In this document: positions 4,869-59,398 of the stretch, in pieces | Position numbering within the stretch: position 1 is the first letter of the stretch | Layout: each line of letters starts with the position of its first letter | Origin: an uncultured Candidatus Saccharibacteria bacterium | Lineage (GTDB): Bacteria > Patescibacteriota > Minisyncoccia > Phycocordibacterales > CAIZLB01 | DNA: 64,000 nt | Assembly: GCA_964520545.1 (NCBI GenBank) | Contig: CAZFOD010000004.1 | Span: 4,844-68,843 of the forward strand | Reading direction: 5' to 3' | Translations under genes and position numbers: made by a program | The notes under the pieces: generated by a model | Told to the model about the DNA's origin: nothing | The model's database searches: none | The model's input: the letters and a program-made list of their open reading frames with translations, nothing else

Positions 4869-5258
4869 ATGAACTACTACACAGATGTGATTAAAAAATA
4901 TGCAGCATTCACCGGCCGAGCTACTCGGAAGGAATACTGGATGTTCTTTCTCATAAACGCTCTCATAGGAATCACACTTAATCTGGTGGAGGGAGATGTT
5001 GGCAATATGGGATTAATATCAGCCATATACAGCTTAGCTTTGCTTACTCCATCAATCGCTGTTGCCGTGAGACGACTTCACGACACTGGAAGAAGTGGCT
5101 GGTGGCTTTTGATTGGAATATTTCCTCTGATTGGAGGCATTATCCTCATATATTTCCTTGTGCAAGATAGTGAAGCTGGAACAAATATATATGGAGCTAG
5201 GCCTTCTAGCCCAAGCGATATGATTCCACCTCCTACAGAAACTACACCGACAAATTAA
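4869..5258 (+). CDS. DUF805 family inner-membrane protein (YhaH-like)
   Basis: Motifs GRATRKEYW and RRLHDTGRSGWW with 3-4 TM segments are hallmarks of DUF805. Confidence 0.8.
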   Translation: MNYYTDVIKKYAAFTGRATRKEYWMFFLINALIGITLNLVEGDVGNMGLISAIYSLALLTPSIAVAVRRLHDTGRSGWWLLIGIFPLIGGIILIYFLVQDSEAGTNIYGARPSSPSDMIPPPTETTPTN

Positions 5259-5271
5259 TACTTAAAAGAAG

Positions 5272-5300
5272 ACCGCGTGGCGCACAAAGCACCACGCGGT
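5272..5300. terminator. bidirectional hairpin terminator; copy 1 of the repeated hairpin accgcgtggcgcacaaagcaccacgcggt
   Basis: Perfect 9-bp stem with a T-run on the plus strand and an A-run upstream; lies between convergent genes 4869..5258 and 5313..6005. A near-identical hairpin recurs at 6668-6696. Confidence 0.6.
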
Positions 5301-5312
5301 TTTTCCATTTGC

Positions 5313-6005
5313 TCATGACCACAAAAGATGATGTTCAGCAGCCCTGCCAGTTCTAACGAGATCTACCACACGGCTGAATTGATCTTGGTCAGTTCTGAAA
5401 TCAATGCCGAACTTTAAAAGTGCAGAACTCACTTCCTCGATCCGGTGTAATGTGTCACGGTGGACCTTGCAGAAACGATCCGGATCATTCACCAAATGAC
5501 CCTCGAGCGCATACATCTGGGCGATGAGGGCAAACTCCTCCTTACGGATTTCAGAAAGAATGTGAGTGACAAAGTCGACCACTAACATCTTCCACACAGT
5601 GGAACTAATTCCCTCCCCAGACTCTCTTGCCCAGGGCGATTCGATGCCTCGTGCAGCAGTCTTAAGCGCTTCGACATCGTTCCGTAGGTCGTAGTAAGCA
5701 ACGAGCCTATCCCACTTGTTTCGTCCGTACCCAAGGTAAAGAATTCCTCCCACGCCAAAGGCGAGAAATGCCCCAGTACCCAGAGTCTGAACAATCGCAA
5801 AGACGATAACGGAAACGACTAGTGCGAAAACGGAAAGGACTTTTCCGATTTGATAGAGGAGCTCCGCATCCTCAAGTTCGGTCAACGAGTGACGAACCTT
5901 TTGTTGCCCCATCCACAGATTGAAGAGTGACCTACTGTCACCCGCAAGGTTCGCTTCCGTTAAGAACGGCTTTTCAACCGCAGTAATTTCGGTATCTGAA
6001 CTCAT
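5313..6005 (-). CDS. 2-TM membrane protein, paralog A (hypothetical)
   Basis: 230 aa: N-terminal region of about 55 aa, a TM hairpin, then a C-terminal domain of about 120 aa. Distant paralog of 6714..7370 (shared KWDRLVAYYDLR / KKYDTLLYDTRQ, DPDRF/DPDRY and LLKFGIDF / LKKFGLQL). Confidence 0.6.
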   Translation of the reverse strand: MSSDTEITAVEKPFLTEANLAGDSRSLFNLWMGQQKVRHSLTELEDAELLYQIGKVLSVFALVVSVIVFAIVQTLGTGAFLAFGVGGILYLGYGRNKWDRLVAYYDLRNDVEALKTAARGIESPWARESGEGISSTVWKMLVVDFVTHILSEIRKEEFALIAQMYALEGHLVNDPDRFCKVHRDTLHRIEEVSSALLKFGIDFRTDQDQFSRVVDLVRTGRAAEHHLLWS

Positions 6006-6092
6006 ACATGTACCTTTCTAGCCCACTTGGGGCACGTTGTTACGGTTGAACTGAGATGATCAGTTAGGTTTTAATCTAAACCAAACTATACC
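6006..6092 (-). promoter_or_regulatory. conserved 5' leader copy 1 (-10 TATAGT through RBS GAAAGG), with -35 TTGACT at 6107-6112
   Basis: Block of about 85 nt that is about 90% identical to 7371-7456. Contains the -10 (revcomp of 6085-6090), the conserved small hairpin gccccaagtgggc and the RBS immediately before ATG 6005. Confidence 0.55.
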
Positions 6093-6120
6093 CCTCGACA
6101 CTCAGGAGTCAATAATTGAA

Positions 6121-6152
6121 AAAGCGCTCCGTGTACCTGCCCGGAGCGCTTT
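6121..6152 (-). terminator. intrinsic terminator after the zinc-ribbon gene
   Basis: aaagcgctccg/cggagcgcttt 11-bp stem followed by a T-run on the minus strand. Confidence 0.55.
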
Positions 6153-6391
6153 CAAGGTTTAGTGTTTGGTGCTTTTGGTACAGTGAATGCACGAATCCCC
6201 TGGAAAATCTTTGCGCCCCGTATAGGGACATCGTCAGATTTTCGCTCGCAAACATGGCATTTGTCACCTTTATTGTAAGCACTGAGAATGGTGGGACAGT
6301 TTTCACCTCCACACCGCCTTCGTACTCCTTTTCGGTGATTTGTTTTTTTTCTTCTTGAACGCTTTGCGTTCGGCTGACTTGTTTCAGGCAT
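6152..6391 (-). CDS. small basic zinc-ribbon protein (hypothetical; CX4C...CX2C)
   Basis: MPETSQPNAKRSRRKKTNHRKGVRRRCGGENCPTILSAYNKGDKCHVCERK: Lys/Arg-rich N-terminus plus a four-Cys ribbon. Alternative TTG start at 6433 abuts the stop of the upstream small gene. Confidence 0.4.
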   Translation of the reverse strand: MPETSQPNAKRSRRKKTNHRKGVRRRCGGENCPTILSAYNKGDKCHVCERKSDDVPIRGAKIFQGIRAFTVPKAPNTKP

Positions 6392-6435
6392 ATGATCTGC
6401 AGAAATTCTAATCCAGGAATCTGTTTTTTGCAAAA

Positions 6436-6639
6436 TTAATATTCATTCGTTTCCGCATCTTTCTTTTCCAGCAAAATCTTTACCGCCTCAGCTTCCTTTA
6501 TGGCACCAATGTCTCGCTCAGTCTTTGTCTTCCCATCAGCACCAGGAGCAAATGATCTCATTGTCATGAGAAGTCCGATGATGAGTACTCCGAGCATGAG
6601 AATAATGAGGAGCATGAAGCCTGAATTATCTTTTTTCAT
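6436..6639 (-). CDS. small single-TM protein (hypothetical)
   Basis: MKKDNSGFMLLIILMLGVLIIGLLMTMRS... 67 aa from ATG 6639; the ORF track extends to 6717 across the upstream terminator, which is unlikely to be the real start. Confidence 0.35.
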   Translation of the reverse strand: MKKDNSGFMLLIILMLGVLIIGLLMTMRSFAPGADGKTKTERDIGAIKEAEAVKILLEKKDAETNEY

Positions 6640-6667
6640 ATATGTATATTGTATTACAAAAAAGAAA

Positions 6668-6696
6668 ACTGCGTGGCGCACAAGGCACCACGCAGT
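6668..6696 (-). terminator. hairpin terminator copy 2 (actgcgtggcgcacaaggcaccacgcagt)
   Basis: Near-identical to hairpin 5272-5300; lies 14 nt after the stop of 6714..7370, followed by a T-run on the minus strand. Confidence 0.6.
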
Positions 6697-6713
6697 CTTT
6701 TTCTTTTTGTGAG

Positions 6714-7370
6714 TCACACCTCACGCAAACGGTATTCCTCCTGGTCTGCGAGCTGGAGCCCGAACTTCTTTAGCGCCAAGTTCAGACTGTAATACCGATC
6801 ATCGAGGTTTACTAACTCTTTGAGCGGTTCACCGTTATACACATCGTCCCCACTATAACGATCAGGGTCAAGCCGGTAGGCATCGGCAATCGTCCCATCC
6901 AAGACGCGGATGAATGTTGCCGTGAGCCACTCCGAGAGCCACACCTCATGTGAACTCGAATCGCTCGGAGCATCAATTGCCGACAGAACACCGAACTCTC
7001 GAATCGCGTACCGTAACTGCCTTGTGTCGTAGAGCAGCGTGTCGTACTTCTTGATATCGGCATTTCTCCTCGCCGATTGAGAGAGCTCCCAATAGAAGAC
7101 GCAGGCCGAGGCGCAGATGATGAGGCAAATGAAGAACGCGTAAAGATTGGGTCCCTGATTGTAGGAGACAGCCGCCAGCATGCCGAAAATGGCGATGACA
7201 ATCTGGATAAACGTCAGACTTCTTTGCAACCCGCTGTGCTTGCTTCTTACCTTTTCCAGTGGTTCTTCAAAGCCCCCATTCCTTGCTTTCCACGCCGCGA
7301 ACAGAGTGACGTTTGGTCCCATTGTTATACCGAAGCGACGAATCGCTATTGGACTAGATGCATTTTGCAT
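6714..7370 (-). CDS. 2-TM membrane protein, paralog B (hypothetical)
   Basis: 218 aa with the same architecture as 5313..6005 and weak but clear sequence similarity in the C-terminal domain. Confidence 0.6.
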   Translation of the reverse strand: MQNASSPIAIRRFGITMGPNVTLFAAWKARNGGFEEPLEKVRSKHSGLQRSLTFIQIVIAIFGMLAAVSYNQGPNLYAFFICLIICASACVFYWELSQSARRNADIKKYDTLLYDTRQLRYAIREFGVLSAIDAPSDSSSHEVWLSEWLTATFIRVLDGTIADAYRLDPDRYSGDDVYNGEPLKELVNLDDRYYSLNLALKKFGLQLADQEEYRLREV

Positions 7371-7456
7371 AAGTTACCTTTCTAGCCCACTTGGGGCACG
7401 TTGTTATAGTTGAACTGAGAGGATCAGTTGGGTTTTGATCTAAGTTAAACTATACA
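7371..7456 (-). promoter_or_regulatory. conserved 5' leader copy 2 (-10 TATAGT at revcomp of 7449-7454; -35 TTGCTA at revcomp of 7471-7476)
   Basis: About 90% identical to 6006-6092, including the gccccaagtgggc hairpin and the GAAAGG RBS. Confidence 0.55.
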
Positions 7457-7596
7457 ACAAATGTACAATATAGCAAGTGTGAATTGACTTTGGAATAAAA
7501 AACCTCATAGTATGGCCTGAAAGGAGCTTTCTAAGGCACAACTGGTTCATTGGTTTCGAATTCCTCGACACCGCCAGCAACACTTAGATTGTCGCT

Positions 7597-8118
7597 ATGC
7601 TCTTCAAACAAAACATCGTAGTCTTCGGCGCTTTCCTCATCCTCTTGGGATTCGCCTTCCTCACGTTTCTCGCAATTGTCCACGGAAAACCTCCGCAAGG
7701 ACTCAAGGGAATGTTCGGCAGATTCATGCTTCTCTCATGCAGCTTCGTAAGCCTCACCACCATTGGCCTCGACATCGTCGGGAGCACGTGGCAGGCAAAG
7801 GTGGAGCTTCGTCCGATTGCCGAGCAGTTTGCAAAACCGCCAAAAACGAAGGCAGAACATCGAAACATTCTTTCGCAACGCGAAGTGCTGGACGATGTGA
7901 AGAAATTCGATCTCAACTTCAGCACGGAAGCCGTTGAGGGCACCGGGCTCGGAGGGACGTTCATCCCCTGGATGTTCGACGGCTTCAACACCATCGTCCG
8001 GGGTGTGTACGTCCATCCCCGAATCCTTCTGACGTGTATGATCCTTTGGTTCACGAGCACCATGTTCCTGTTCCTCGGAAACCACTACGGGGGTGGCGGA
8101 AAGAAAGCGGCACACTGA
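7597..8118 (+). CDS. membrane protein (hypothetical), GC-rich
   Basis: Hydrophobic N- and C-terminal segments. The plus-strand terminator at 8137-8170 supports this strand over the overlapping minus ORFs. Confidence 0.45.
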   Translation: MLFKQNIVVFGAFLILLGFAFLTFLAIVHGKPPQGLKGMFGRFMLLSCSFVSLTTIGLDIVGSTWQAKVELRPIAEQFAKPPKTKAEHRNILSQREVLDDVKKFDLNFSTEAVEGTGLGGTFIPWMFDGFNTIVRGVYVHPRILLTCMILWFTSTMFLFLGNHYGGGGKKAAH

Positions 8119-8136
8119 GAGTGCCGGTAGATATGA

Positions 8137-8170
8137 AAACGCGGGTTCCCCCTTGGGCACCCGCGTTTTT
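8137..8170 (+). terminator. intrinsic terminator
   Basis: aacgcgggt/acccgcgtt stem followed by TTTTTT. Confidence 0.55.
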
Positions 8171-8231
8171 TACTTTCATGAAAACTTTTACTTTTGGGAT
8201 ATAATCAGGCAATACAAATAATATCCATTTT

Positions 8232-8978
8232 ATGACATACATCATTCCAACACTCGCGGCTATCCTTTTCATCCTACTCATCAGTATCAAACAGATTAAT
8301 CAATATGAGAGAGGTGTTAAATTCATGTTGGGAAAATTTCGACACATCATGCAGCCTGGATGGAGACTTGTCTTCCCCATCGTTCAGTCATATCAGAAAG
8401 TAGATATCCGTACGAAAGCCGTAGATGTTCCAGATCAGAATGCGATCACAAGAGACAACGTAACAGTGAGCGTCAATGCTGTGATCTACTACAAAGTACT
8501 TGATGCAGCAAAAGCTATCATCGAAGTTGAAGATTTTAAATATGCGATTTCTCAGTACGCTCAGACAACAATGAGAAATATTGTTGGAGAAGCAACTCTT
8601 GATGAGCTTCTAGCTAACAGAGACAAGATTGCCGACAGAATTCGTGAAATTGTAGACAAAGAGACTGATGCATGGGGACTTAAGGTTCAAAATGTTGAAT
8701 TGAAAGATGTAAGCCTTCCCCCTCAGCTTGAGCGTACAATCAGTAAGCAAGCAGAAGCTGAACGAGAAAAGCGTGCAGTCATCATCACATCTGAAGGAGA
8801 ACTTGCTGCAGCAAACAACATGTCAAAGGCAGCTGAAATATTGGCGCAAACACCAGGAGCTCTACACTTGCGAACATTGCAGTCTATCAACGACATGTCT
8901 TCAGATCAATCAAACACAGTTGTATATATGGTTCCAGTTGAGGTATTGAAAGCGTTTGATGGGTTTGCGAAGAAATAG
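8232..8978 (+). CDS. SPFH/band-7 (stomatin/prohibitin-like) membrane protein
   Basis: N-terminal TM, then a typical SPFH core (YERGVKFMLGKF..., ...AEREKRAVIITSEGE...). Confidence 0.85.
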   Translation: MTYIIPTLAAILFILLISIKQINQYERGVKFMLGKFRHIMQPGWRLVFPIVQSYQKVDIRTKAVDVPDQNAITRDNVTVSVNAVIYYKVLDAAKAIIEVEDFKYAISQYAQTTMRNIVGEATLDELLANRDKIADRIREIVDKETDAWGLKVQNVELKDVSLPPQLERTISKQAEAEREKRAVIITSEGELAAANNMSKAAEILAQTPGALHLRTLQSINDMSSDQSNTVVYMVPVEVLKAFDGFAKK

Positions 8979-9041
8979 CAAAAGAAAAACCGCCCTCCGA
9001 AAGCACAGGCAGGGCGGCTTTCTTGAGGGCGGTCAAACGAA

Positions 9042-9665
9042 TCAGTCGACCAAAACCTGGTCATGAATGGGAACGGGATGTGGCTTACGTGCGGGCAAAT
9101 CGTCACCGCACATGCCGTGGAACTCAACAAAGCACACTTCACACACCCAGACTGGATAGATGCTTCCCCAGATGTTGAGCAATGCGACGCGAGTCGCTGG
9201 GTGGCTGCACCCCTCAATGGAACATTCGTGACTTCCAGGAATGAATGGGGACTTATCCTTGAATTCAAACAAGGTATGAAAGCCGCGGGGAAATGTCCGT
9301 TTCGCATAGAACTCAAGCTTCCAATCTGATTCGATCGCAAGTTCATCTGGCCGGAAGAATACGACGCGAGGACAATCTGTCCAAATTCGTTCTTCCAAAA
9401 TCCAATCGTGATTGGTACCCCCGAGCTCGGCTTCGTGCATTTGATCCCATTCGCGAACTACGGTTCCTTGATTGAACTGAATGTGACCAACCTCCCGGTG
9501 GAAGAAGACGGCGACGGTGTACCCATCACCTTCAATCTTTGAATCCGGATCGACGACGAGACCTTGGTATTGAGACCAATTCCCTGCTTCAGCCATGCTA
9601 ACTATCGATCCCTTGAGAATTGGCTGCGACTTTGAATCGAGGACAACATTTTCTTGAACTGACAT
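9042..9665 (-). CDS. hypothetical protein with C-terminal Cys/His cluster (putative Zn-binding), GC-rich
   Basis: 207 aa; C-terminus HECSIEGCSHP...VCEVCFVEFHGMCGDD. Confidence 0.45.
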   Translation of the reverse strand: MSVQENVVLDSKSQPILKGSIVSMAEAGNWSQYQGLVVDPDSKIEGDGYTVAVFFHREVGHIQFNQGTVVREWDQMHEAELGGTNHDWILEERIWTDCPRVVFFRPDELAIESDWKLEFYAKRTFPRGFHTLFEFKDKSPFIPGSHECSIEGCSHPATRVALLNIWGSIYPVWVCEVCFVEFHGMCGDDLPARKPHPVPIHDQVLVD

Positions 9666-9787
9666 AGGTTTTTGGCCTTTCTAAATTTTTAGGTTGTGAA
9701 CAATGGTGCGACATCTTTGTTGATATCGCGGTTCGAAATAAGAATACGTCTGTGGAAAGGGTGCGTCAAGCAGGCTTAGGTCTTCAA

Positions 9788-10525
9788 TTACAGCTTCGCG
9801 TAAAGTAGTTTAAACACCCTTTTTTGAAACTCAGCAATCATTGGATTATCAATCGTCACTACAGTCTTTGAATTGTAATCAATAATTGCAACCTTGTTTC
9901 CGTAGATAATCTGCGACACATTTAATCCAAAAAGATCCTGATCGTTTGGTATGAATTTAATCTTTTTTCCAAGCTTCTTGATTGTTGTATTTCTACGAGA
10001 CGCCTCATCGGTAATGACATATCTCTCGAGTCCTTTGAAGTCTCGTTGATATCTGTAATCTTTCGGTAAAAACTTTTTACGTGCCAAACTAAGAGCTGAA
10101 CTATATCTGTAATACACATCATCTTTCTTAAGACTGTGAACGACATCAGAGAATGTTTCTCGTATCGCCTTGTCTCCTTCAGAAAATGTCACGAGAGGTT
10201 TCTTTCCTCTTGTTGAGTATGACTCATGCATTGCATGTATCTCAGAATTAAAATCATCCTCAAGTTCGGTAAACAATCTTTCTACCTTCTCTGGAGATTC
10301 GGCAACATATACCTTGTATTTTCCTTTCGGCATTACACTCACAAGTCCTCGATCAATAAGGGCAGGAAGCATTTTGTAGACTGTTGGGCGATGTAAGCCA
10401 ACCTTTCGTACAATGTCAGAAATTGATGCTGGGCCAGTCTCTAAAAGGGAAAGATATATAGAACTCTCTTCGGTAGTGAAGCCTAGCTTTTCTAATACAG
10501 TATTTTTTCTTTGCATCTTTTTCAT
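9788..10525 (-). CDS. TrmB-family transcriptional regulator
   Basis: HTH segment LEKLGFTTEESSIYLSLLETGPASISDIVRKVGLHRPTVYKML is typical of TrmB; probable start at MKKMQRKN (10525). Confidence 0.65.
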   Translation of the reverse strand: MKKMQRKNTVLEKLGFTTEESSIYLSLLETGPASISDIVRKVGLHRPTVYKMLPALIDRGLVSVMPKGKYKVYVAESPEKVERLFTELEDDFNSEIHAMHESYSTRGKKPLVTFSEGDKAIRETFSDVVHSLKKDDVYYRYSSALSLARKKFLPKDYRYQRDFKGLERYVITDEASRRNTTIKKLGKKIKFIPNDQDLFGLNVSQIIYGNKVAIIDYNSKTVVTIDNPMIAEFQKRVFKLLYAKL

Positions 10526-10687
10526 AGGTTGTATTCTTTTGTTACAACCTAATCCTACACAAGTATCCATATTTTGCAACGTATATCGGGTTTTCCACTC
10601 GTACTGCTACAACTTTGTCATATTTCCATACATGTAAACGCTACATCGCATATATTTAAAACAGAAAGGTAATTAACAACAACATAT

Positions 10688-11590
10688 ATGAACAAACAAC
10701 ATCTGCGGCTTCCCCTATTGGGTATCGGCCGCCACATGACACTTATGGTCAAAAAGGCCATTGGTATCATTCGCGAAGAAAGCCATGACCTCGTCGTTGA
10801 AGACAAGGTTGGGTACGACAAAGTCAAATGGGATTGCGTTACTGCCGGCGACAAACGCGCGCAAGAAATGTATCTCAAAGAGATCGCAAAGCACTTCCCG
10901 ACATTTGGGGTCATTGCAGAGGAAAAAGAATTAACGATTCCCTGCACCGACGCCAACTTCGACGTGCACTTCACCATTGATCCTCTTGACGGTACCAAGG
11001 CCTACGCGCGCAAACAATCACACGGCGTGAGCACAATGCTCGCCCTCGTCTGCGACGGAAAGATTGTTGCGGTGACAATCGGCGACGCAAACACTGGTGA
11101 AATCTACGAGTATGCCGCTGAGGATGCTCGAGGCGAAGTGGCAAGATGGCGCTTCGACAAGATGGAGAAACTGGAGCCCGACGTCGTAAGACCTCTGCAC
11201 CAGCAGTACGTGCTCCTTCTCGACAACCCACGCATCCAGCCACAAGTCGTCAAAGACATGGCTACACTCTTCCCTGCGGAAGGCGGGCTGTTCAAGGACT
11301 TTGAGATCCAAGGAGGTAGCATCGGTCTTCGATTCGCTCGTCTTTGGAAGGGCGAAATCGGCGGCATCATCCTTAGCCCTACGCACGACACACCCTGGGA
11401 TCTCATACCAGTACTCGGCATCAGCAAGCGTCTTGGATTCAAATTCTTCCGACTGGATCCGGCGACGAACACGTTCACTGAACGCGAACCAGAACTCACG
11501 AAGGTCATCGTAAAGAAACCCTTCGTCGAGCTCATCATCCACGAAACACATGTGCCAGAGTTCAAAGCCTGGCTCGCTGGTAACAATTAA
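10688..11590 (+). CDS. inositol monophosphatase family protein (SuhB/CysQ-like)
   Basis: Motifs D.VT..D...E, EE, FTIDPLDGTKAY and PWDLIPVLGI match the IMPase signatures. GC-rich segment. Confidence 0.65.
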   Translation: MNKQHLRLPLLGIGRHMTLMVKKAIGIIREESHDLVVEDKVGYDKVKWDCVTAGDKRAQEMYLKEIAKHFPTFGVIAEEKELTIPCTDANFDVHFTIDPLDGTKAYARKQSHGVSTMLALVCDGKIVAVTIGDANTGEIYEYAAEDARGEVARWRFDKMEKLEPDVVRPLHQQYVLLLDNPRIQPQVVKDMATLFPAEGGLFKDFEIQGGSIGLRFARLWKGEIGGIILSPTHDTPWDLIPVLGISKRLGFKFFRLDPATNTFTEREPELTKVIVKKPFVELIIHETHVPEFKAWLAGNN

Positions 11591-11600
11591 CAAAAAAACT

Positions 11601-12080
11601 ATGCGAAAGAAAGAAGTACTTGGGATTGACCTCGGAGACACAATCTTCGACAGGTCACTCTCACCAACACAACCGTTTCAAGATGCTTTACGTGTCATTA
11701 AACGGCTAACTGAAGAACGGTTCACTGCACCACATGTGCACATCGTCTCCAAAGTTAATACTGAACAGAAGCTCCGCGCCGAAGCACGCCTTGCAGAATA
11801 TGGATTCTTCGAGGCGACGGGTATCCCCGAAACAAATCTGCACTTCTGCGCTGAGCGTTCCGAAAAGGCGCCCATCTGTGAGAGGCTAGGAATCACGCAC
11901 TTCATCGACGACCGTGTCGAGGTGCTGTATCACCTCCTCAACATCGTCCCCCACTGCTACCTCTTCCGTGGCAACACGAAGAGAGAGCTGGATACTGACG
12001 AGCTGGAGTTCCAGCATGTCACGCAGCAGACGAGGGTTGTGAACAGTTGGCTCGACGTCGAGGAGCTGTTGTTGAAATAA
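11601..12080 (+). CDS. HAD-like hydrolase (putative nucleotidase-like), weak assignment
   Basis: Start GIDLGDTIF and C-terminal GITHFIDDR resemble HAD motifs I and IV, but motif I is degenerate. Confidence 0.35.
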   Translation: MRKKEVLGIDLGDTIFDRSLSPTQPFQDALRVIKRLTEERFTAPHVHIVSKVNTEQKLRAEARLAEYGFFEATGIPETNLHFCAERSEKAPICERLGITHFIDDRVEVLYHLLNIVPHCYLFRGNTKRELDTDELEFQHVTQQTRVVNSWLDVEELLLK

Positions 12081-12090
12081 GTACAAATCA

Positions 12091-12125
12091 AAAGGGCCGC
12101 AGAGACAATGTCTCCGCGGCCCTTT
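12091..12125. terminator. GC-rich perfect palindrome hairpin (bidirectional terminator)
   Basis: aagggccgcagagaca/tgtctccgcggccctt. Confidence 0.6.
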
Positions 12126-12129
12126 AACT

Positions 12130-12486
12130 CTATTCCGGTAAACCGGGGATCTCGACGACCACCAGCTGTTCTGCATTCGTACGATTCCATCTCCTCCACT
12201 GAGTGCAGGGCAATCCGAATTCCAGGCCACCAATTTTTCGTGGTATCTGAATCATGAGAAACGGAATTCCGTCGTAAAGACTTACAATCCGGCCATCATA
12301 TTCGGTTCCAGCTCTGAGGAAGGTGTGCATTTTTTTGCACGAAGAGACTACCATTGGCTCCCCGCTCACGATTCTTACAGGGATGTCATATACTCGCTGA
12401 GGAACACCGCTTACCGGTGCTAAGGCTTGTGGGTTGGGCATATTCGATATTTGGTTGAGGTTGCAATCTGTATGTGATTTAAACAC
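12130..12486 (-). CDS. hypothetical protein
   Basis: 118-aa ORF bracketed by two related GC-rich hairpins; no recognisable motifs. Confidence 0.3.
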   Translation of the reverse strand: MFKSHTDCNLNQISNMPNPQALAPVSGVPQRVYDIPVRIVSGEPMVVSSCKKMHTFLRAGTEYDGRIVSLYDGIPFLMIQIPRKIGGLEFGLPCTQWRRWNRTNAEQLVVVEIPGLPE

Positions 12487-12508
12487 CTATGTCACATTGG
12501 GTCAAACT

Positions 12509-12544
12509 AAAAGGCCGCGGGTGACATTGCACCCGCGGCCTCTT
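12509..12544. terminator. GC-rich hairpin related to 12091-12125
   Basis: aggccgcgggtg/cacccgcggcct with loop acattg; shares the ggccgcgg core and loop with the previous hairpin. Confidence 0.55.
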
Positions 12545-12550
12545 CATCTT

Positions 12551-13564
12551 TTACAACCCCTCGATAGTAACCGTACTATCGCGTCGAAGAGCCAGCCATT
12601 GGCCCAACTGAAGACCATACTCGATTTTACGCTCGCCACTTGGATCGCGCATCATGAGGTAGGTGTGGGTTCCGTCACTGCATTTGCGGGCGAGATATCG
12701 CCCCGTTTTTAGCCTCAGCTCCAAACGAAGTCCCCTGTTGAATACCATCACCGCACCGACGACTCTGATTATCAAGTCATACTCGTAGGTATCGATATTA
12801 GGATCTTCTCCAGTTTGCTTCACAATCTGTCGCTTCTGGCGCTCTGCATCCACTCGAGCGTAGTTTTCCATCGTCTTCTGCTTACGCGCCTCATCTTTCT
12901 GCGTTCTTCTTTCCGCCTTCAACTTCTTTTCTGGAAGGCTCCTAAGAACACGTATGAGCCTAGCGCGCTGCCACTCGATCGTTTGCCTTTTTTGCACGGA
13001 TCGTAACACGGGAGTTCGCTGTTTCTTTCGTTCCTCAATCAGCTTTCTTGCTAATAACCTGGAAAGAGAACGCAGAAGCCTGGCGCGCTGCCACTCGATC
13101 GTTTGCTTCTTCGGCAATGGAGGAGGGGTTTTTACTTCCCTCTGCACGGGCGGTGCTTCAGGCGTAGTTACGCCTAACTTTTCCGAACCCTCGGCTGTGA
13201 GCAAAACCGCCAAGGAAACAATGAGCTCAACCCCATCATCAAACATGCTTGGGAAATTTTCCTCGTCATCATCTTCAGCGATGTCGATTCCACGAGCTGT
13301 TTCAGCCTTGAGCAAGGTTCCTTCATATTGAAGCCAGGCATACCACTCCTTCTTACCCACAACGACGTGGAGGAAGTCCGAAACGCTGTCTCCAATGCGT
13401 ACTTCGAACTTTTGATACACCTGCTTCGACTTCCAGGGCAGCTCGGAGTAACACTCCTTGCGACAGCAGCAAAGGTACACATACCCCGGCTGCAGCTCTA
13501 TGCCCTGCCTATACGCTTTCACCCTTTTGTCCATCGTACCCTCTGACGCTTTTAGCATACTCAT
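12551..13564 (-). CDS. hypothetical protein with internal tandem repeat (QTIEWQRARL[L/I]R, twice) and charged helical linker
   Basis: 337 aa, GC-rich. DNA direct repeat agcct.gcgcgctgccactcgatcgtttgc at about 12959 and 13079. Plus-strand alternative ORFs look like antisense artefacts. Confidence 0.5.
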   Translation of the reverse strand: MSMLKASEGTMDKRVKAYRQGIELQPGYVYLCCCRKECYSELPWKSKQVYQKFEVRIGDSVSDFLHVVVGKKEWYAWLQYEGTLLKAETARGIDIAEDDDEENFPSMFDDGVELIVSLAVLLTAEGSEKLGVTTPEAPPVQREVKTPPPLPKKQTIEWQRARLLRSLSRLLARKLIEERKKQRTPVLRSVQKRQTIEWQRARLIRVLRSLPEKKLKAERRTQKDEARKQKTMENYARVDAERQKRQIVKQTGEDPNIDTYEYDLIIRVVGAVMVFNRGLRLELRLKTGRYLARKCSDGTHTYLMMRDPSGERKIEYGLQLGQWLALRRDSTVTIEGL

Positions 13565-13755
13565 CGGATTTGGTCCTTTCTGGTCTGGTTTGTTGTTAGA
13601 TAACTGGTCTGTATGTATTTAACTCGTATTTTAGGATACCGTCAATCCTAGACGTGACATATATTTAAAATGATATAACCTATATAACCAGAGATGAACT
13701 CGGCAGCGATTCCATCGCAGATCGAGAGTGGAACGAAACATCAACAGATATTTAC

Positions 13756-14478
13756 ATGAACCAAGATGCCAGAACCATTCGGGAAGCATTACGCTTCCTG
13801 CTCCGTAACGCCTTCCTATATTTCTACGCGTGGGCAGGGGGGATTATCAGTATCCACAAGCAAACACTCCGGTCCATCGATCGAATCGTAAAGAACGGTG
13901 ATGCGATCATCGAAATCGGCTGTGGCAGAGGCTTCTTCACAAAAGCCCTGCATGAGAAAATGAGTCGGATGCACGACGTTACAATAACAGCATCAGACAT
14001 CAACCCAAAGGTTGTCGAACATGCCGCAAGGTATTGTGGCGCGGAATATTTCCCCCCAAGCGACGCCTTCTTCACCGAAGATAACAGCCTAGAAATCCGT
14101 CTAGCTAGTGCCACCAACATTGGCTCGACGGTAAGCAAAAAGGCAGATGTCATACTCTGCATCATGGTGGCCCACCACCTTAGCCACTGTGAAAGGCAGC
14201 AGATGATCAAAGGGATATATGAAGCACTGGGTCCCGGGCGGACAGCCCTGGTCGTGGATCACGGAAAGCCCAGTACCTGGTATGGAAAAATATTCTGGCT
14301 TCTCTTTCACCACCACTGCTTTGCAAATGGGTGCATTGAGTCCATTGAAGAGATGGCGGAGAAACAGGGATTCATCAATCGTATCTACTGGGAAACGCAG
14401 TTTGGATGGATTCATCATCTGACAATCCAAAGACCACTGAATGGGGTTCCCTCCGCAAAACAGGGACAAGCCAACTAA
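13756..14478 (+). CDS. class I SAM-dependent methyltransferase
   Basis: Motif I IIEIGCGRGFFTKAL and the downstream Rossmann-like pattern. Confidence 0.65.
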   Translation: MNQDARTIREALRFLLRNAFLYFYAWAGGIISIHKQTLRSIDRIVKNGDAIIEIGCGRGFFTKALHEKMSRMHDVTITASDINPKVVEHAARYCGAEYFPPSDAFFTEDNSLEIRLASATNIGSTVSKKADVILCIMVAHHLSHCERQQMIKGIYEALGPGRTALVVDHGKPSTWYGKIFWLLFHHHCFANGCIESIEEMAEKQGFINRIYWETQFGWIHHLTIQRPLNGVPSAKQGQAN

Positions 14479-14480
14479 AC

Positions 14481-14516
14481 GAAAGCGGCCACCGACAAAA
14501 TGTCAGTGGCCGCTTT
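14481..14516. terminator. bidirectional hairpin terminator
   Basis: aaagcggccac/gtggccgcttt. Confidence 0.55.
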
Positions 14517-14530
14517 AACGTTTGGAGATA

Positions 14531-15142
14531 TTAGTTTTCTGCAACGATAAGGAGGTTCGCCTTGGCTGCAGCCGTCTTTCCCCAACAAGGGGATGACGCT
14601 GACCATGGCTGTGTACCCTGCTCCTCATACAAGAGACGTCCGTACGCGAGGTTTCCCTCAACAGTGTAAAGATCATATCCAAGCTTCTGCGCACGTTTTA
14701 AGTGGTATCGCTCGTTGATCTGCATCACACCGACGTCCTTGGCGTTTACCCTTCCGCGCACAGTCTCGCCATTCTTATCGTACTGTCGAAACTGGGACTC
14801 ACATCTTGAGACTTCCGCCATTACGGGGATATCAGAGAAGTAGGCCCGAACCTTTGCCTCAATGCCGGCATTGGTAGGGATCGTTGAGCTTGCTGTCTTC
14901 TGTAAAGAAGTAGCAATCTCGACGGTCTGGGATTTAGCAATTTCCTGTTTTGAAAGTGTGTCTGTAGAGGTAGAAGTACCGTCTGACATCATTCCTGAAA
15001 CCATCATCGCTAAACCGAAGGTCAATGGTAAAATAAGCCTTTTCTTATCTAGTAATGCGCTCGTCCATTTCAGTAAATTTGAGCGCTTGCACCTAACTAA
15101 AAAAGCACATTGCTGTGCTTCTTTATGTCTATATACTAGCAC
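14531..15142 (-). CDS. lytic transglycosylase (SLT domain, IagB-like)
   Basis: CESQFRQYDKNGETVRGRVNAKDVGVMQINERYH...YTVEGNLAYGRLLY matches the family 1 lytic transglycosylase catalytic pattern (ES.F ... G[LV]MQI). Signal-peptide-like segment KKRLILPLTFGLAMMVSG; start uncertain. Confidence 0.55.
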   Translation of the reverse strand: MLVYRHKEAQQCAFLVRCKRSNLLKWTSALLDKKRLILPLTFGLAMMVSGMMSDGTSTSTDTLSKQEIAKSQTVEIATSLQKTASSTIPTNAGIEAKVRAYFSDIPVMAEVSRCESQFRQYDKNGETVRGRVNAKDVGVMQINERYHLKRAQKLGYDLYTVEGNLAYGRLLYEEQGTQPWSASSPCWGKTAAAKANLLIVAEN

Positions 15143-15574
15143 CTTTTGAACCCCCTGTCAAGAAAAATGCCTCATTTCTGACCCCTAGAAAGGCATTAAT
15201 ATGGCTCAACTGAGCCGTAATACCCATACCATAGACTTTACACTAAATCAAACATATGTCATGGTTTTTTTGCCTTCGTCTTCACTTTATGGATCGGCAC
15301 TGAACTTGTCGCCCTAAGCCCCACCAGAACCTCTTCCGAGCAGAGAATTTGGATGGGAGGCGGTGTATTTATACGCTCCCAAAGGAAGCCGACACCCAGA
15401 AAACCCATAATATTAAGTATTGTGGATATACAGAATACCCAAATCACCCAATCTCCCCCACCCCGCTTCCTATTGATATTTTCAGACACCTGAGCTATAC
15501 TCATTGAACTTAATTGTATAGATCTGGCCTGAAAAAGGCCTCAAGCTTAAGTAAAGATTTAATTATATAACACC

Positions 15575-57541: not shown

Positions 57542-57898
57542 ATACGGATACAGGTACAACAAAAGCCGACACGCGTCGGCTTTTTTGTTTGCACACTTTG
57601 CTTAGAAACCTAATCCGGCAAGTCTTAGAAGCCAAATGATGACGACAACGACTAGAACAATCTGTACTGGCTTTACAATCTGCGCTGGTAAAAGCGGAAG
57701 GAGGTAGGTATATATCACCCAAAGGACAACGATGACGAGGAGGATCTGTAATATCATGAGAATTTTAAATTAAATGGTTACCTCTAGATTGTACCACTAT
57801 ATAATTTTTAATTTACGTAGATTATACCCAATCTTAATGAAGATTAAGTAATTTTGATGAAAATTGTTAATAAATTTGTTATAGTGAAACTATACTCC

Positions 57899-59398
57899 AT
57901 GAGCATTAAAAGATACCTTTCTGTCATAGTCATCGTCGGTCTGCTTGTAAGCTTTTTGCCGACACAAAAAGCAGAGGCAGATACCGTAGTTGGCACTATT
58001 TCTGTTGGATATTTGCCTATAAGCATAGGTACGCTTGGAACTAAAGTTTATGTAGCCAATCTACTCCATGACTCTGTATCAATTATTGATACAGAGAACA
58101 ATAATACGGTTTCAACAATACAAGTTGGTGCCACTCCGTATGCAATAACAACACTGGGTCAAAAGGTGTATGTCGCAAACAACGGTGATGCGACAGTCTC
58201 AATCATTGATACTGCCAATAATAACGCAGTTACTTCAGTTAATGTTGAAAACAGCCCTTACTATATAACCGCATCAAGTACGAAAGTGTATGTGGTGAAT
58301 AATATTGGTAGTGTTTCGATAATTGATACCGCAAATAACAACGCAGTTACAAACATACCAGTTGGAGGGGGTCCTCAGGGTTTAGCTCTTTTGGGAACAA
58401 ATGTCTACGTTGTAGATTCCGCTGGCGGCACAGTTACAGTCATAGATACAGCAAATAACAACGCGACAACGACCGTAAACGTAGGGCAAGCACCCCTTGA
58501 CATCGTTACACTGGGTTCGAAAGTTTATGTGGTTGATAACAACGAAAATCGAATTTCAATTATCGACCCTGGCAATAACAACAATGTCACATCGGTAAAT
58601 GTCGGAAACAGTCCTAGCTACATTACAAAATTAGGAACAAAACTCTATGTAACAAACTATCTCGACAATACGGTCTCAATCATTGATACAGCAAACAATA
58701 ATGCGGTTTCAACTGTCTCAGTGGGCATTGGACCTCAAGCTATTTACGCATTTGGGACAAAAGTGTATGTAGCCAACGTCGATGGTACTGGAAATAAAGT
58801 TTCGATCATCGACACATCGGACGGGGATTCTGTATCTACCGTTACAGTTGGAGCCACGCCTCAAGCTTTTACTAGCCTTGGAACTAAAGTTTATGTAGTA
58901 AATATTAGCAGTAATAATGTTTCCATTATAGAAACAGCGCCTTCTCCAGCCGCCATTGGAGGCTTCTCTACTTCCTACTCCTATGATTATATAAATGGAA
59001 TTTTGACGACAACTACTGGAAACATGGTTTCAACAAGTTCAATTCCAAAAATACTCCCATTCGCTCAAACTCAAGCTACATCATCACCAGCCGTAGCTAC
59101 GACCACACCCCCTACTGTTCAGCCAACACCAGTTCCAGTTCAAGAAAAGTTTTCATTCCTCAAGGATCTTAAATACAAAGACATTGATACTGACGTGCTA
59201 AAGCTTCAACAGTTTCTAAACTCACATGGAGCAACGGTTTCAATTTCTGGTGCAGGATCTATTGGTAAAGAAACAACACTCTTCGGACCGGCAACTCGTG
59301 CTGCTTTGATTAAATTTCAGAAAGCTAATAACATCCGACCTTCAGTGGGATTCTTCGGTCCAATAACTAGAGGAATTGTAAACGCATTGTTACGTTAG
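57899..59398 (+). CDS. YVTN-family beta-propeller repeat surface protein with C-terminal peptidoglycan-binding domain
   Basis: About nine repeats of about 40 aa (KVYVAN..D.TVSIIDTANNN.V.TV.VG..P); C-terminus DVLKLQQFLNSHG...FGPATRAALIKFQKANNI matches PG_binding_1; signal peptide starts at M16. Confidence 0.7.
   Translation: MSIKRYLSVIVIVGLLVSFLPTQKAEADTVVGTISVGYLPISIGTLGTKVYVANLLHDSVSIIDTENNNTVSTIQVGATPYAITTLGQKVYVANNGDATVSIIDTANNNAVTSVNVENSPYYITASSTKVYVVNNIGSVSIIDTANNNAVTNIPVGGGPQGLALLGTNVYVVDSAGGTVTVIDTANNNATTTVNVGQAPLDIVTLGSKVYVVDNNENRISIIDPGNNNNVTSVNVGNSPSYITKLGTKLYVTNYLDNTVSIIDTANNNAVSTVSVGIGPQAIYAFGTKVYVANVDGTGNKVSIIDTSDGDSVSTVTVGATPQAFTSLGTKVYVVNISSNNVSIIETAPSPAAIGGFSTSYSYDYINGILTTTTGNMVSTSSIPKILPFAQTQATSSPAVATTTPPTVQPTPVPVQEKFSFLKDLKYKDIDTDVLKLQQFLNSHGATVSISGAGSIGKETTLFGPATRAALIKFQKANNIRPSVGFFGPITRGIVNALLR

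Follow-up and report, generated by a model that had tools for sequence, protein, structure and literature searches.

Near-Identical Leaders and Terminators Flank Two Highly Divergent Membrane-Protein Genes in an Uncultured Saccharibacteria Bacterium

Two Predicted Transcription Units with Common Flanks

A 64,000-nt stretch of DNA from an uncultured Candidatus Saccharibacteria bacterium (contig CAZFOD010000004.1, positions 4,844 to 68,843; hereafter the window) carries two genes, A (5313..6005, 230 aa) and B (6714..7370, 218 aa), both on the minus strand and each flanked by a near-identical leader and terminator hairpin. We lean, with slightly better than even confidence, toward reading them as two separately transcribed, old and fast-evolving membrane-protein paralogs that share a leader for common control and whose flanks were recently gene-converted. 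The initial annotation of this DNA had described a tandem cassette pair. The pair with shared flanks stands, but it is not strictly tandem: the units share a strand but are spaced 1.4 kb apart, with a terminator (6122-6153) and two small genes (6152-6391 and 6436-6639) between them. Four relative contigs were informative for comparison, namely L003, L008, and L009 from a sister lineage and the more distant L010.

The shared 5′ block spans 6006..6092 before gene A and 7371..7456 before gene B, both on the minus strand. It is ~85 nt long and 89–90% identical, which confirms the annotated 85-nt leader of about 90% identity; direct-repeat analysis of the window aligned 6011-6091 with 7375-7455 at 90% identity and without gaps. 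The window holds exactly two copies of a 29-nt leader core, where shuffles predict none. The block starts at the −10 hexamer TATAGT and stops at the ATG; upstream of it the units differ, in their −35 boxes and beyond. Of the predicted sigma-70-type promoter of A (TTGACT-16 nt-TATAGT; 6085..6112, minus strand; 10/12 consensus matches), only the −10 box falls inside the block. The predicted promoter of B (TTGCTA-16 nt-TATAGT; 7449..7476, minus strand) has 9/12 matches, and its −35 box is kept in L003 and L008.

Each leader contains a 6-bp stem or palindrome, AACTGA-N5-TCAGTT (hairpin 1; 6049-6065 in A and 7413-7429 in B), a CA-rich linker, a 4-bp GC stem, GCCC-N5-GGGC (hairpin 2; GCCC-CAAGT-GGGC in A; 6021-6033 and 7385-7397), and a ribosome-binding site (RBS), GAAAGG, 6–7 nt before the ATG (6013-6018 in A, ~6 nt before the ATG in B). 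The −10 element, small hairpin, and RBS that had been ascribed to the 5′ block were all located in both leaders. With a transcription start inferred ~7 nt after the −10 box, the leader RNA would be ~70 nt long. Across the four leader sequences compared, all 22 of 22 stem positions of the two hairpins were invariant and the loops and linker varied; this contrast suggests selection on the leader, in the form of a structural or binding constraint.

Both elements appear specific to the A and B genes, since copies were found only at these genes: two leaders and two terminators in the window and one of each in the 13-kb L008 locus. Profile searches with nhmmer found no third copy of leader or terminator in the window. 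The leader pattern CGTGCCCCNNNTGGGCTAGAAAGG had no match in Joint Genome Institute (JGI) metagenomes, IMG/VR viral contigs, or GTDB representative genomes. The only Rfam 15 match in the window was a tRNA, and nothing in 5200-7600 had E < 0.18 or came near a gathering score. The palindrome AACTGA-N5-TCAGTT was also considered as the mark of a wider regulon; only the two leader copies were exact, and looser matches occurred at chance level.

Two further observations concern the leader. Hairpin 2 overlaps a five-codon mini open reading frame (ORF), GTG CCC CAA GTG GGC TAG, that ends just before the RBS (6021-6038 and 7385-7402). Its third codon is CGT in L003 and CGC in L008, a synonymous difference (Arg); because no RBS stands in front of it, the mini-ORF is probably untranslated. 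Separately, the Logan contigs L001, L002, and L007 end inside a 31-nt identical run of the leader (6011-6041 and 7375-7405), so that the repeat fragments assemblies, and similar units may go unnoticed in other genome bins.

At the 3′ ends, terminator A (5262..5304, minus strand) comprises the hairpin 5272-5300 and a T-run, and terminator B (6655..6710, minus strand) the hairpin 6668-6696, extendable to 6665-6699, and a T-run. The surrounding flanks, 5256-5304 and 6652-6700, are 84% identical, and a 23-nt hairpin core has exactly two copies in the window against zero expected. Predicted folding energies were −26.7 kcal/mol for A and −28.4 kcal/mol for B (z about −5.4 and −6.0, respectively), with perfect, GC-rich stems of 12–15 pairs. 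A GC-rich stem-loop followed by a U-run 12–17 nt after the stop codon is the form of an intrinsic (Rho-independent) terminator. The same 29-nt hairpin had been placed 12–14 nt past each stop; the hairpin was borne out, as was the gap for A (12 nt), but for B the gap is wider, at 14–17 nt. The two hairpins are identical at 27/29 positions and differ in one stem pair, C-G in A and U-A in B (U.G in the orthologs of B), and in one loop base. Terminator A serves both strands, ending the convergent DUF805 gene (4869-5258, plus strand) as well. At the A position of L010, the terminator is an unrelated hairpin.

Membrane Proteins A and B

Protein A consists of an N-terminal segment of ~50 aa, two membrane helices within residues ~52-95, and a helical C-terminal domain of ~135 aa; B has the same layout. 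Hydropathy placed the two membrane helices at residues ~52-72 and 76-96 in both proteins, and structure models gave helices at these positions within an all-helical prediction. The distribution of basic residues around the membrane helices points to an N-in/C-in topology, in which the helical tail would be cytoplasmic.

The coding sequences had been called barely alignable at the DNA level, and we detected no similarity at all, either by blastn (E > 0.1) or by tblastx in any frame. The same searches ruled out that the A coding sequence is a frameshifted B. At the protein level, BLASTP of A against B returned E = 0.64 and local alignment showed no similarity. A profile of A and its L010 homolog had B orthologs as its best non-self matches among 580 ORFs (E 0.011 and 0.036), global profile-profile alignment of the two families with hhalign gave P = 1e-4 over the full length, and semi-global A–B alignment scored z 3.9–6.0 above region-wise shuffles. 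The N-terminal segments alone gave z = −0.1. These comparisons uphold the description of A and B as distantly related two-helix membrane proteins and indicate that they are very distant paralogs with a shared layout.

Neither protein could be placed in a described family. A Pfam-A scan at E ≤ 1 gave nothing for A and, for B, only weak matches driven by the membrane segment, none of them to SLATT. PADLOC, PHROGs, NCBIfam, and PDB sequences held no match for A or B. In a word-indexed search of 5.8 billion protein clusters, A found only itself and B found one relative; scanning all 1.84 billion representatives with B by phmmer contributed only two further matches, both spurious and to repeat proteins. 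The A and B families thus appear confined to a few Saccharibacteria-like contigs, with no known-family match.

The N-terminus of B deserves two remarks. Public gene calls for B and its L003 ortholog start too far downstream, at 202 aa (M17) and 178 aa (M42), respectively; a length of 218–220 aa is backed by the conserved N-terminus IRxFGxTxGPNxTLFAAWKAxNG and the conserved RBS (L003 ortholog 380-1039). An N-terminal motif of B, GPNVTLFAAWKARNG (window 7290-7340, residues 14-30), resembles the repeat unit GPDGTLYAAWxDxRNG, and the beta-propeller-like repeat protein P0005 matched it with E 3e-4 summed over four repeats; the likeness is probably due to chance.

Conservation in Related Contigs

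In the sister lineage (L003, L008, and L009), proteins neighboring the two units are 76–98% identical to those of the window. L008 shows the full gene order, with DUF805, the zinc-ribbon gene, a small membrane gene, B, a 173-aa gene, and the Band 7 gene; L003 and L009 show parts of it. Gene B is conserved at the matching position in all three, with its leader in L003 and L008 and its terminator in all three, so the flanks are present at homologous loci of related genomes, and the absence that the initial annotation had named as a refutation is not seen. The complete A transcription unit, 851 nt long (5259..6109, minus strand), is present in the window and missing from L008 and L009; the missing segment runs from terminator tail to terminator tail, and in these contigs the terminator of the zinc-ribbon gene abuts the DUF805 stop codon.

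The more distant L010 (run SRR22387955) carries DUF805 and Lnb_N proteins that are 65% and 69% identical to those of the window. Convergent with its DUF805 gene is a two-helix membrane protein that is homologous to A (26% identity over 226 aa, E 1e-16) and has no similarity to B. This was the only relative of A found, and it stands at the matching position. Because L010 has a true A homolog there, rather than a B-like gene, the A position is ancient, and the A/B duplication predates the L010 split, that is, a divergence at which neighboring proteins are 65–69% identical. Most likely, the sister lineage lost A.

Divergence of Genes and Flanks

Both proteins evolve fast relative to their surroundings. 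Compared with L003 and L008, B has 62% protein identity and a nonsynonymous divergence (dN) of 0.28 (orthologs in all three sister contigs are at this identity), when the dN of its neighbors is mostly 0.009–0.17; a 207-aa gene at 9042-9665 is nearly as fast at 0.22. Between A and its L010 homolog, dN is 0.87 against 0.24–0.27 for neighbors. The ratio of nonsynonymous to synonymous divergence (dN/dS) for B is 0.26–0.29, or 0.20 for the close pair L003–L008, and at most 0.54 in any segment. This is fast protein evolution with dN/dS below 1, which means relaxed constraint. The diversifying selection that the initial annotation had proposed for the proteins is not supported by these ratios, which stay at 0.20–0.29 in every comparison of B. 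The high synonymous divergence (dS) of B, ~1.0, was considered as a mark of old balanced alleles and rejected, as Lnb_N (1.09) and the 207-aa gene (1.02) match it.

For the B leader, identity between orthologous loci is 86%, within the 74–100% of other intergenic regions. The claim that the flanks are far better conserved than the coding sequences holds between A and B, with the qualification that the B leader is at an ordinary intergenic level among orthologs. The contrast between flanks and coding sequences owes much of its strength to the unusual speed at which the coding sequences evolve.

The leaders of A and B nevertheless look too similar for the age of the genes. Their p-distance is 0.114, compared with 0.128 for B and L003, 0.140 for B and L008, and 0.151 for A and the B orthologs. 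The paralogous leaders differ no more than the B leader does from its own orthologs, so the near-identity of the flanks looks younger than the gene duplication and as young as the split of the sister lineage. Of the 13 sites that distinguish B from its orthologs, only two carry a third state in A; saturation would predict about half, a deficit with a binomial P of ~0.01 that becomes weaker if the sites allow only transitions. The terminators independently point the same way. Their stem sequence is free to change, since one stem pair has been swapped and the L010 hairpin is unrelated, yet 27/29 positions are identical. Taken on these comparisons, the near-identity of the flanks is best explained by recent short-tract gene conversion or equivalent recombination. 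Gene conversion and a regulatory role of the flanks had been among several earlier alternatives, and given the leader distances and nearly identical terminators they appear to fit best.

Gene Neighborhood

The genes around the two units encode DUF805, Lnb_N, a zinc-ribbon protein, a small membrane protein, an SPFH/Band 7 protein, and a TrmB-type regulator. With genes for CysRS, DnaB, and a CtpA-type protease, the window represents bacterial chromosome; a phage or plasmid origin was rejected, with no match in phage or plasmid collections. The Lnb_N neighbor has genomic relatives only in distant Candidatus Saccharibacteria genome bins, which do not share the gene order, and the 173-aa neighbor had no relatives in JGI metagenomes. 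Further DUF805 matches (P0089 and P0035) lay in unrelated genomic contexts.

Between units B and A lie the two small genes on the minus strand. The first (6436..6639) encodes a 67-aa single-helix membrane protein and stands directly downstream of terminator B in L003, L008, and L009 as well, at 91–94% aa identity. It lacks a visible RBS, and its ATG is preceded at just 8 nt by a −10-like TACAAT (window 6640-6667); translation may start on a leaderless mRNA, or the gene may depend on read-through of terminator B. The second (6152..6391) encodes a 79-aa, very basic zinc-ribbon protein (C-x4-C ... C-x2-C) with a match to phrog_10853 (E 2.3e-6); this protein is conserved at its place between the units in all relatives and evolves fairly fast (dN 0.17). 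The pair ends at a terminator of its own (6122..6153, minus strand; −20.6 kcal/mol, z −4.5), which is directly upstream of promoter A and 100% identical in L008.

Base composition at third codon positions (GC3) forms a mosaic across 5300-15150. GC3 is 0.51 in A, 0.61 in B, 0.69 in the 173-aa gene (7597-8118), 0.52 in the 207-aa gene, and 0.49–0.62 in the genes of 10688-15142; all these are interleaved with genes of the usual 0.33–0.43. Most of these GC-rich genes have no family match, which fits either a foreign origin or a different selective regime. The 207-aa protein (9042-9665) has a Cys-rich C-terminus, no family match, and 66% identity to its L008 ortholog.

Two other repeats were observed in the window. 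Direct repeats with a ~120-nt period lie within 57854-59398, in a 514-aa ORF that combines a peptidoglycan-binding domain with YNCE-like beta-propeller repeats. The other is a direct repeat of 90 nt, with copies that are 71% identical and 120 nt apart, at 12907-13116 in a 337-aa ORF (12551-13564) that has no family match.

Discussion

We propose that each unit would be transcribed from its own −35 box, with the shared block beginning at the −10 box. Both transcripts would then open with the ~70-nt shared leader, which presents two stem-loops (or, in the DNA, palindromes) and an RBS, and each would end at the matching intrinsic terminator. Since the leader is common to both transcripts, one trans-acting factor could control both; such a hypothetical protein or RNA would bind the two invariant stems and give A and B a common control after initiation. 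Selection for common regulation would preserve the homology of the flanks, and this homology would in turn enable short-tract conversion between the units. The proteins themselves would be anchored in the membrane by the two-helix hairpin, with the helical domain in the cytoplasm. The zinc-ribbon protein may be named as a candidate nucleic-acid-binding partner of the leader, a speculation prompted by its position and basic composition only. If this proposal is broadly right, the feature is mostly explained by ordinary processes, in which old paralogs with fast coding sequences share flanks that were probably converted.

Several points weigh against this proposal. The regulatory role of the leader and its trans-acting factor are hypothetical. 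The stems were compared in four leader sequences that show no covariation, so RNA structure, a DNA operator, and plain sequence conservation are indistinguishable for them. The L010 contig ends inside the A-type gene, before its leader. The AlphaFold models of the proteins are of too low quality to compare folds (mean predicted local distance difference test, pLDDT, of 42.7 for A and 51.6 for B). Finally, few sites underlie the argument for leader conversion, and ~20 variable, transition-biased sites under strong purifying selection could give similar distances. This last point leads to a possible but unlikely alternative, that purifying selection alone has preserved leader and terminator ever since the old duplication, as an RNA element recognized by a factor or as an operator. 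The block begins and ends at functional boundaries (the −10 box and the ATG), its stems do not vary whereas its loops do, and leader distances of 0.11–0.15 are about those expected for ~20 free, nearly saturated sites. An intrinsic terminator, however, needs structure and not sequence; one stem change between the units is compensated and the L010 hairpin is unrelated, yet the A and B hairpins are identical at 27/29 positions. At the sites that vary among B orthologs, A nearly always carries one of the two states, and the B leader is no better conserved between orthologs than other intergenic DNA.

The view that the units are conflict or host-interaction cassettes, with hypervariable SLATT-like pore formers, whether effector, immunity, or surface proteins, under diversifying selection and flanks that serve as homology arms for allele swapping between strains, strikes us as improbable. 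It draws on the speed of A and B, the fastest genes in the neighborhood (dN 0.87 and 0.28), on the presence or absence of the A unit between lineages with clean edges, on the atypical GC3 (0.51–0.61 against 0.33–0.43 in housekeeping genes), and on a two-helix hairpin with helical tail similar to what is generally described for SLATT proteins (PMC9226505). Against it stand the dN/dS of 0.20–0.29 overall and at most 0.54 per segment, and the finding of the same family at the same position in every relative examined, with no swap seen; the earlier suggestion of conflict, immunity, or surface cassettes is not supported on this count. Nor was there any match in Pfam, PADLOC, PHROG, or NCBIfam, any gene for a sensor, nucleotide-signaling enzyme, reverse transcriptase, or recombinase among the neighbors, or anything similar in phage or plasmid collections. 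A bolder proposal, to which we give somewhat less credence still, sees in the 85-nt leader a new cis-regulatory RNA confined to Saccharibacteria (Candidate Phyla Radiation, CPR), which together with the terminator would form a portable expression frame; by recombination in the flanks, strains of an episymbiont with very few regulators would exchange or gain divergent membrane effectors or host-interaction proteins in a small cassette system. Recent duplication of the whole B unit, with extremely fast divergence of the copied coding sequence, would account for flanks as similar as those of orthologs and for two units 1.4 kb apart on the same strand. We regard it as very unlikely, because B kept 69% DNA identity with its orthologs over an equal span when A and B share none, and because the homolog of A at the A position in distant L010 contradicts it. 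Least credible of all is an assembly artefact or chimera. Short-read Logan contigs do break inside the 31-nt identical leader run, but independent contigs span both units and their junctions consistently (L001 and L002 extend from A past its terminator into DUF805, and L007 from B past its terminator and the small genes to promoter A), the two leader copies differ at ~10 sites, and the B unit occurs with the same flanks in contigs from other samples.

To our knowledge, almost nothing is known about how Saccharibacteria regulate their genes. Recent conversion of the flanks of old paralogs, if true, would be a small, clean case of flanks that evolve in concert while the genes they enclose diverge past recognition, and it would mean that conversion tracts of <100 nt can hold two old paralogs under one control. 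The finding marks an undescribed family of fast-evolving membrane proteins and a candidate regulatory leader in Saccharibacteria, in which fast-evolving envelope proteins are natural candidates for interaction with hosts or phages. Its practical value is limited by the occurrence of the family in a handful of contigs.

Concerted evolution by gene conversion is familiar from duplicated tuf genes and rRNA operons, where the coding sequence or functional RNA itself is homogenized. As in those cases, sequences within one genome are more alike here than their age predicts; what differs is that only non-coding flanks of 85 nt and ~45 nt are alike, and the coding sequences between them are unalignable. 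Repeated one-ORF units with a conserved palindromic element also recall integron gene cassettes. That comparison was rejected, since each unit has its own predicted promoter, the palindrome has the geometry of a terminator, only two units exist, and no integrase domain was found among the neighbors scanned, which cover part of the window.

SLATT proteins are small and fast-evolving, with two to three membrane helices and a helical region (PMC9226505). A and B share with SLATT/DUF4231 the two membrane helices and the fast evolution, but they differ in having no profile match and no partner of the SMODS/CD-NTase, SLOG, or reverse-transcriptase type among the neighbors in the window or in L008. 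Of the SLATT-like architecture that had been suggested, the two-helix layout therefore stands and membership does not, there being neither a Pfam or PADLOC match at E ≤ 1 nor a partner gene.

The closest analogue is the erp (OspE/F-related) family of Borrelia burgdorferi, in which conserved promoter/operator DNA, the "upstream homology box", precedes diverged coding sequences (PMC10016077). The erp genes are co-expressed through shared regulator-binding sites, and recombination has been invoked for their origin (PMC10016077). In erp, conservation enters the signal peptide and the first mature residues, whereas the identity of the A and B leaders ends at the ATG. Many copies of erp, carried on cp32 prophage-plasmids, encode surface lipoproteins, whereas A and B are only two, are chromosomal, and code for proteins of an inner-membrane type. 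The erp genes have shared regulators, and the palindromes before A and B would be only compatible with regulator binding. The terminator, too, is shared in the present case. The likeness lies in the arrangement itself, as the A and B leaders are 89–90% identical in front of coding sequences that are unalignable.

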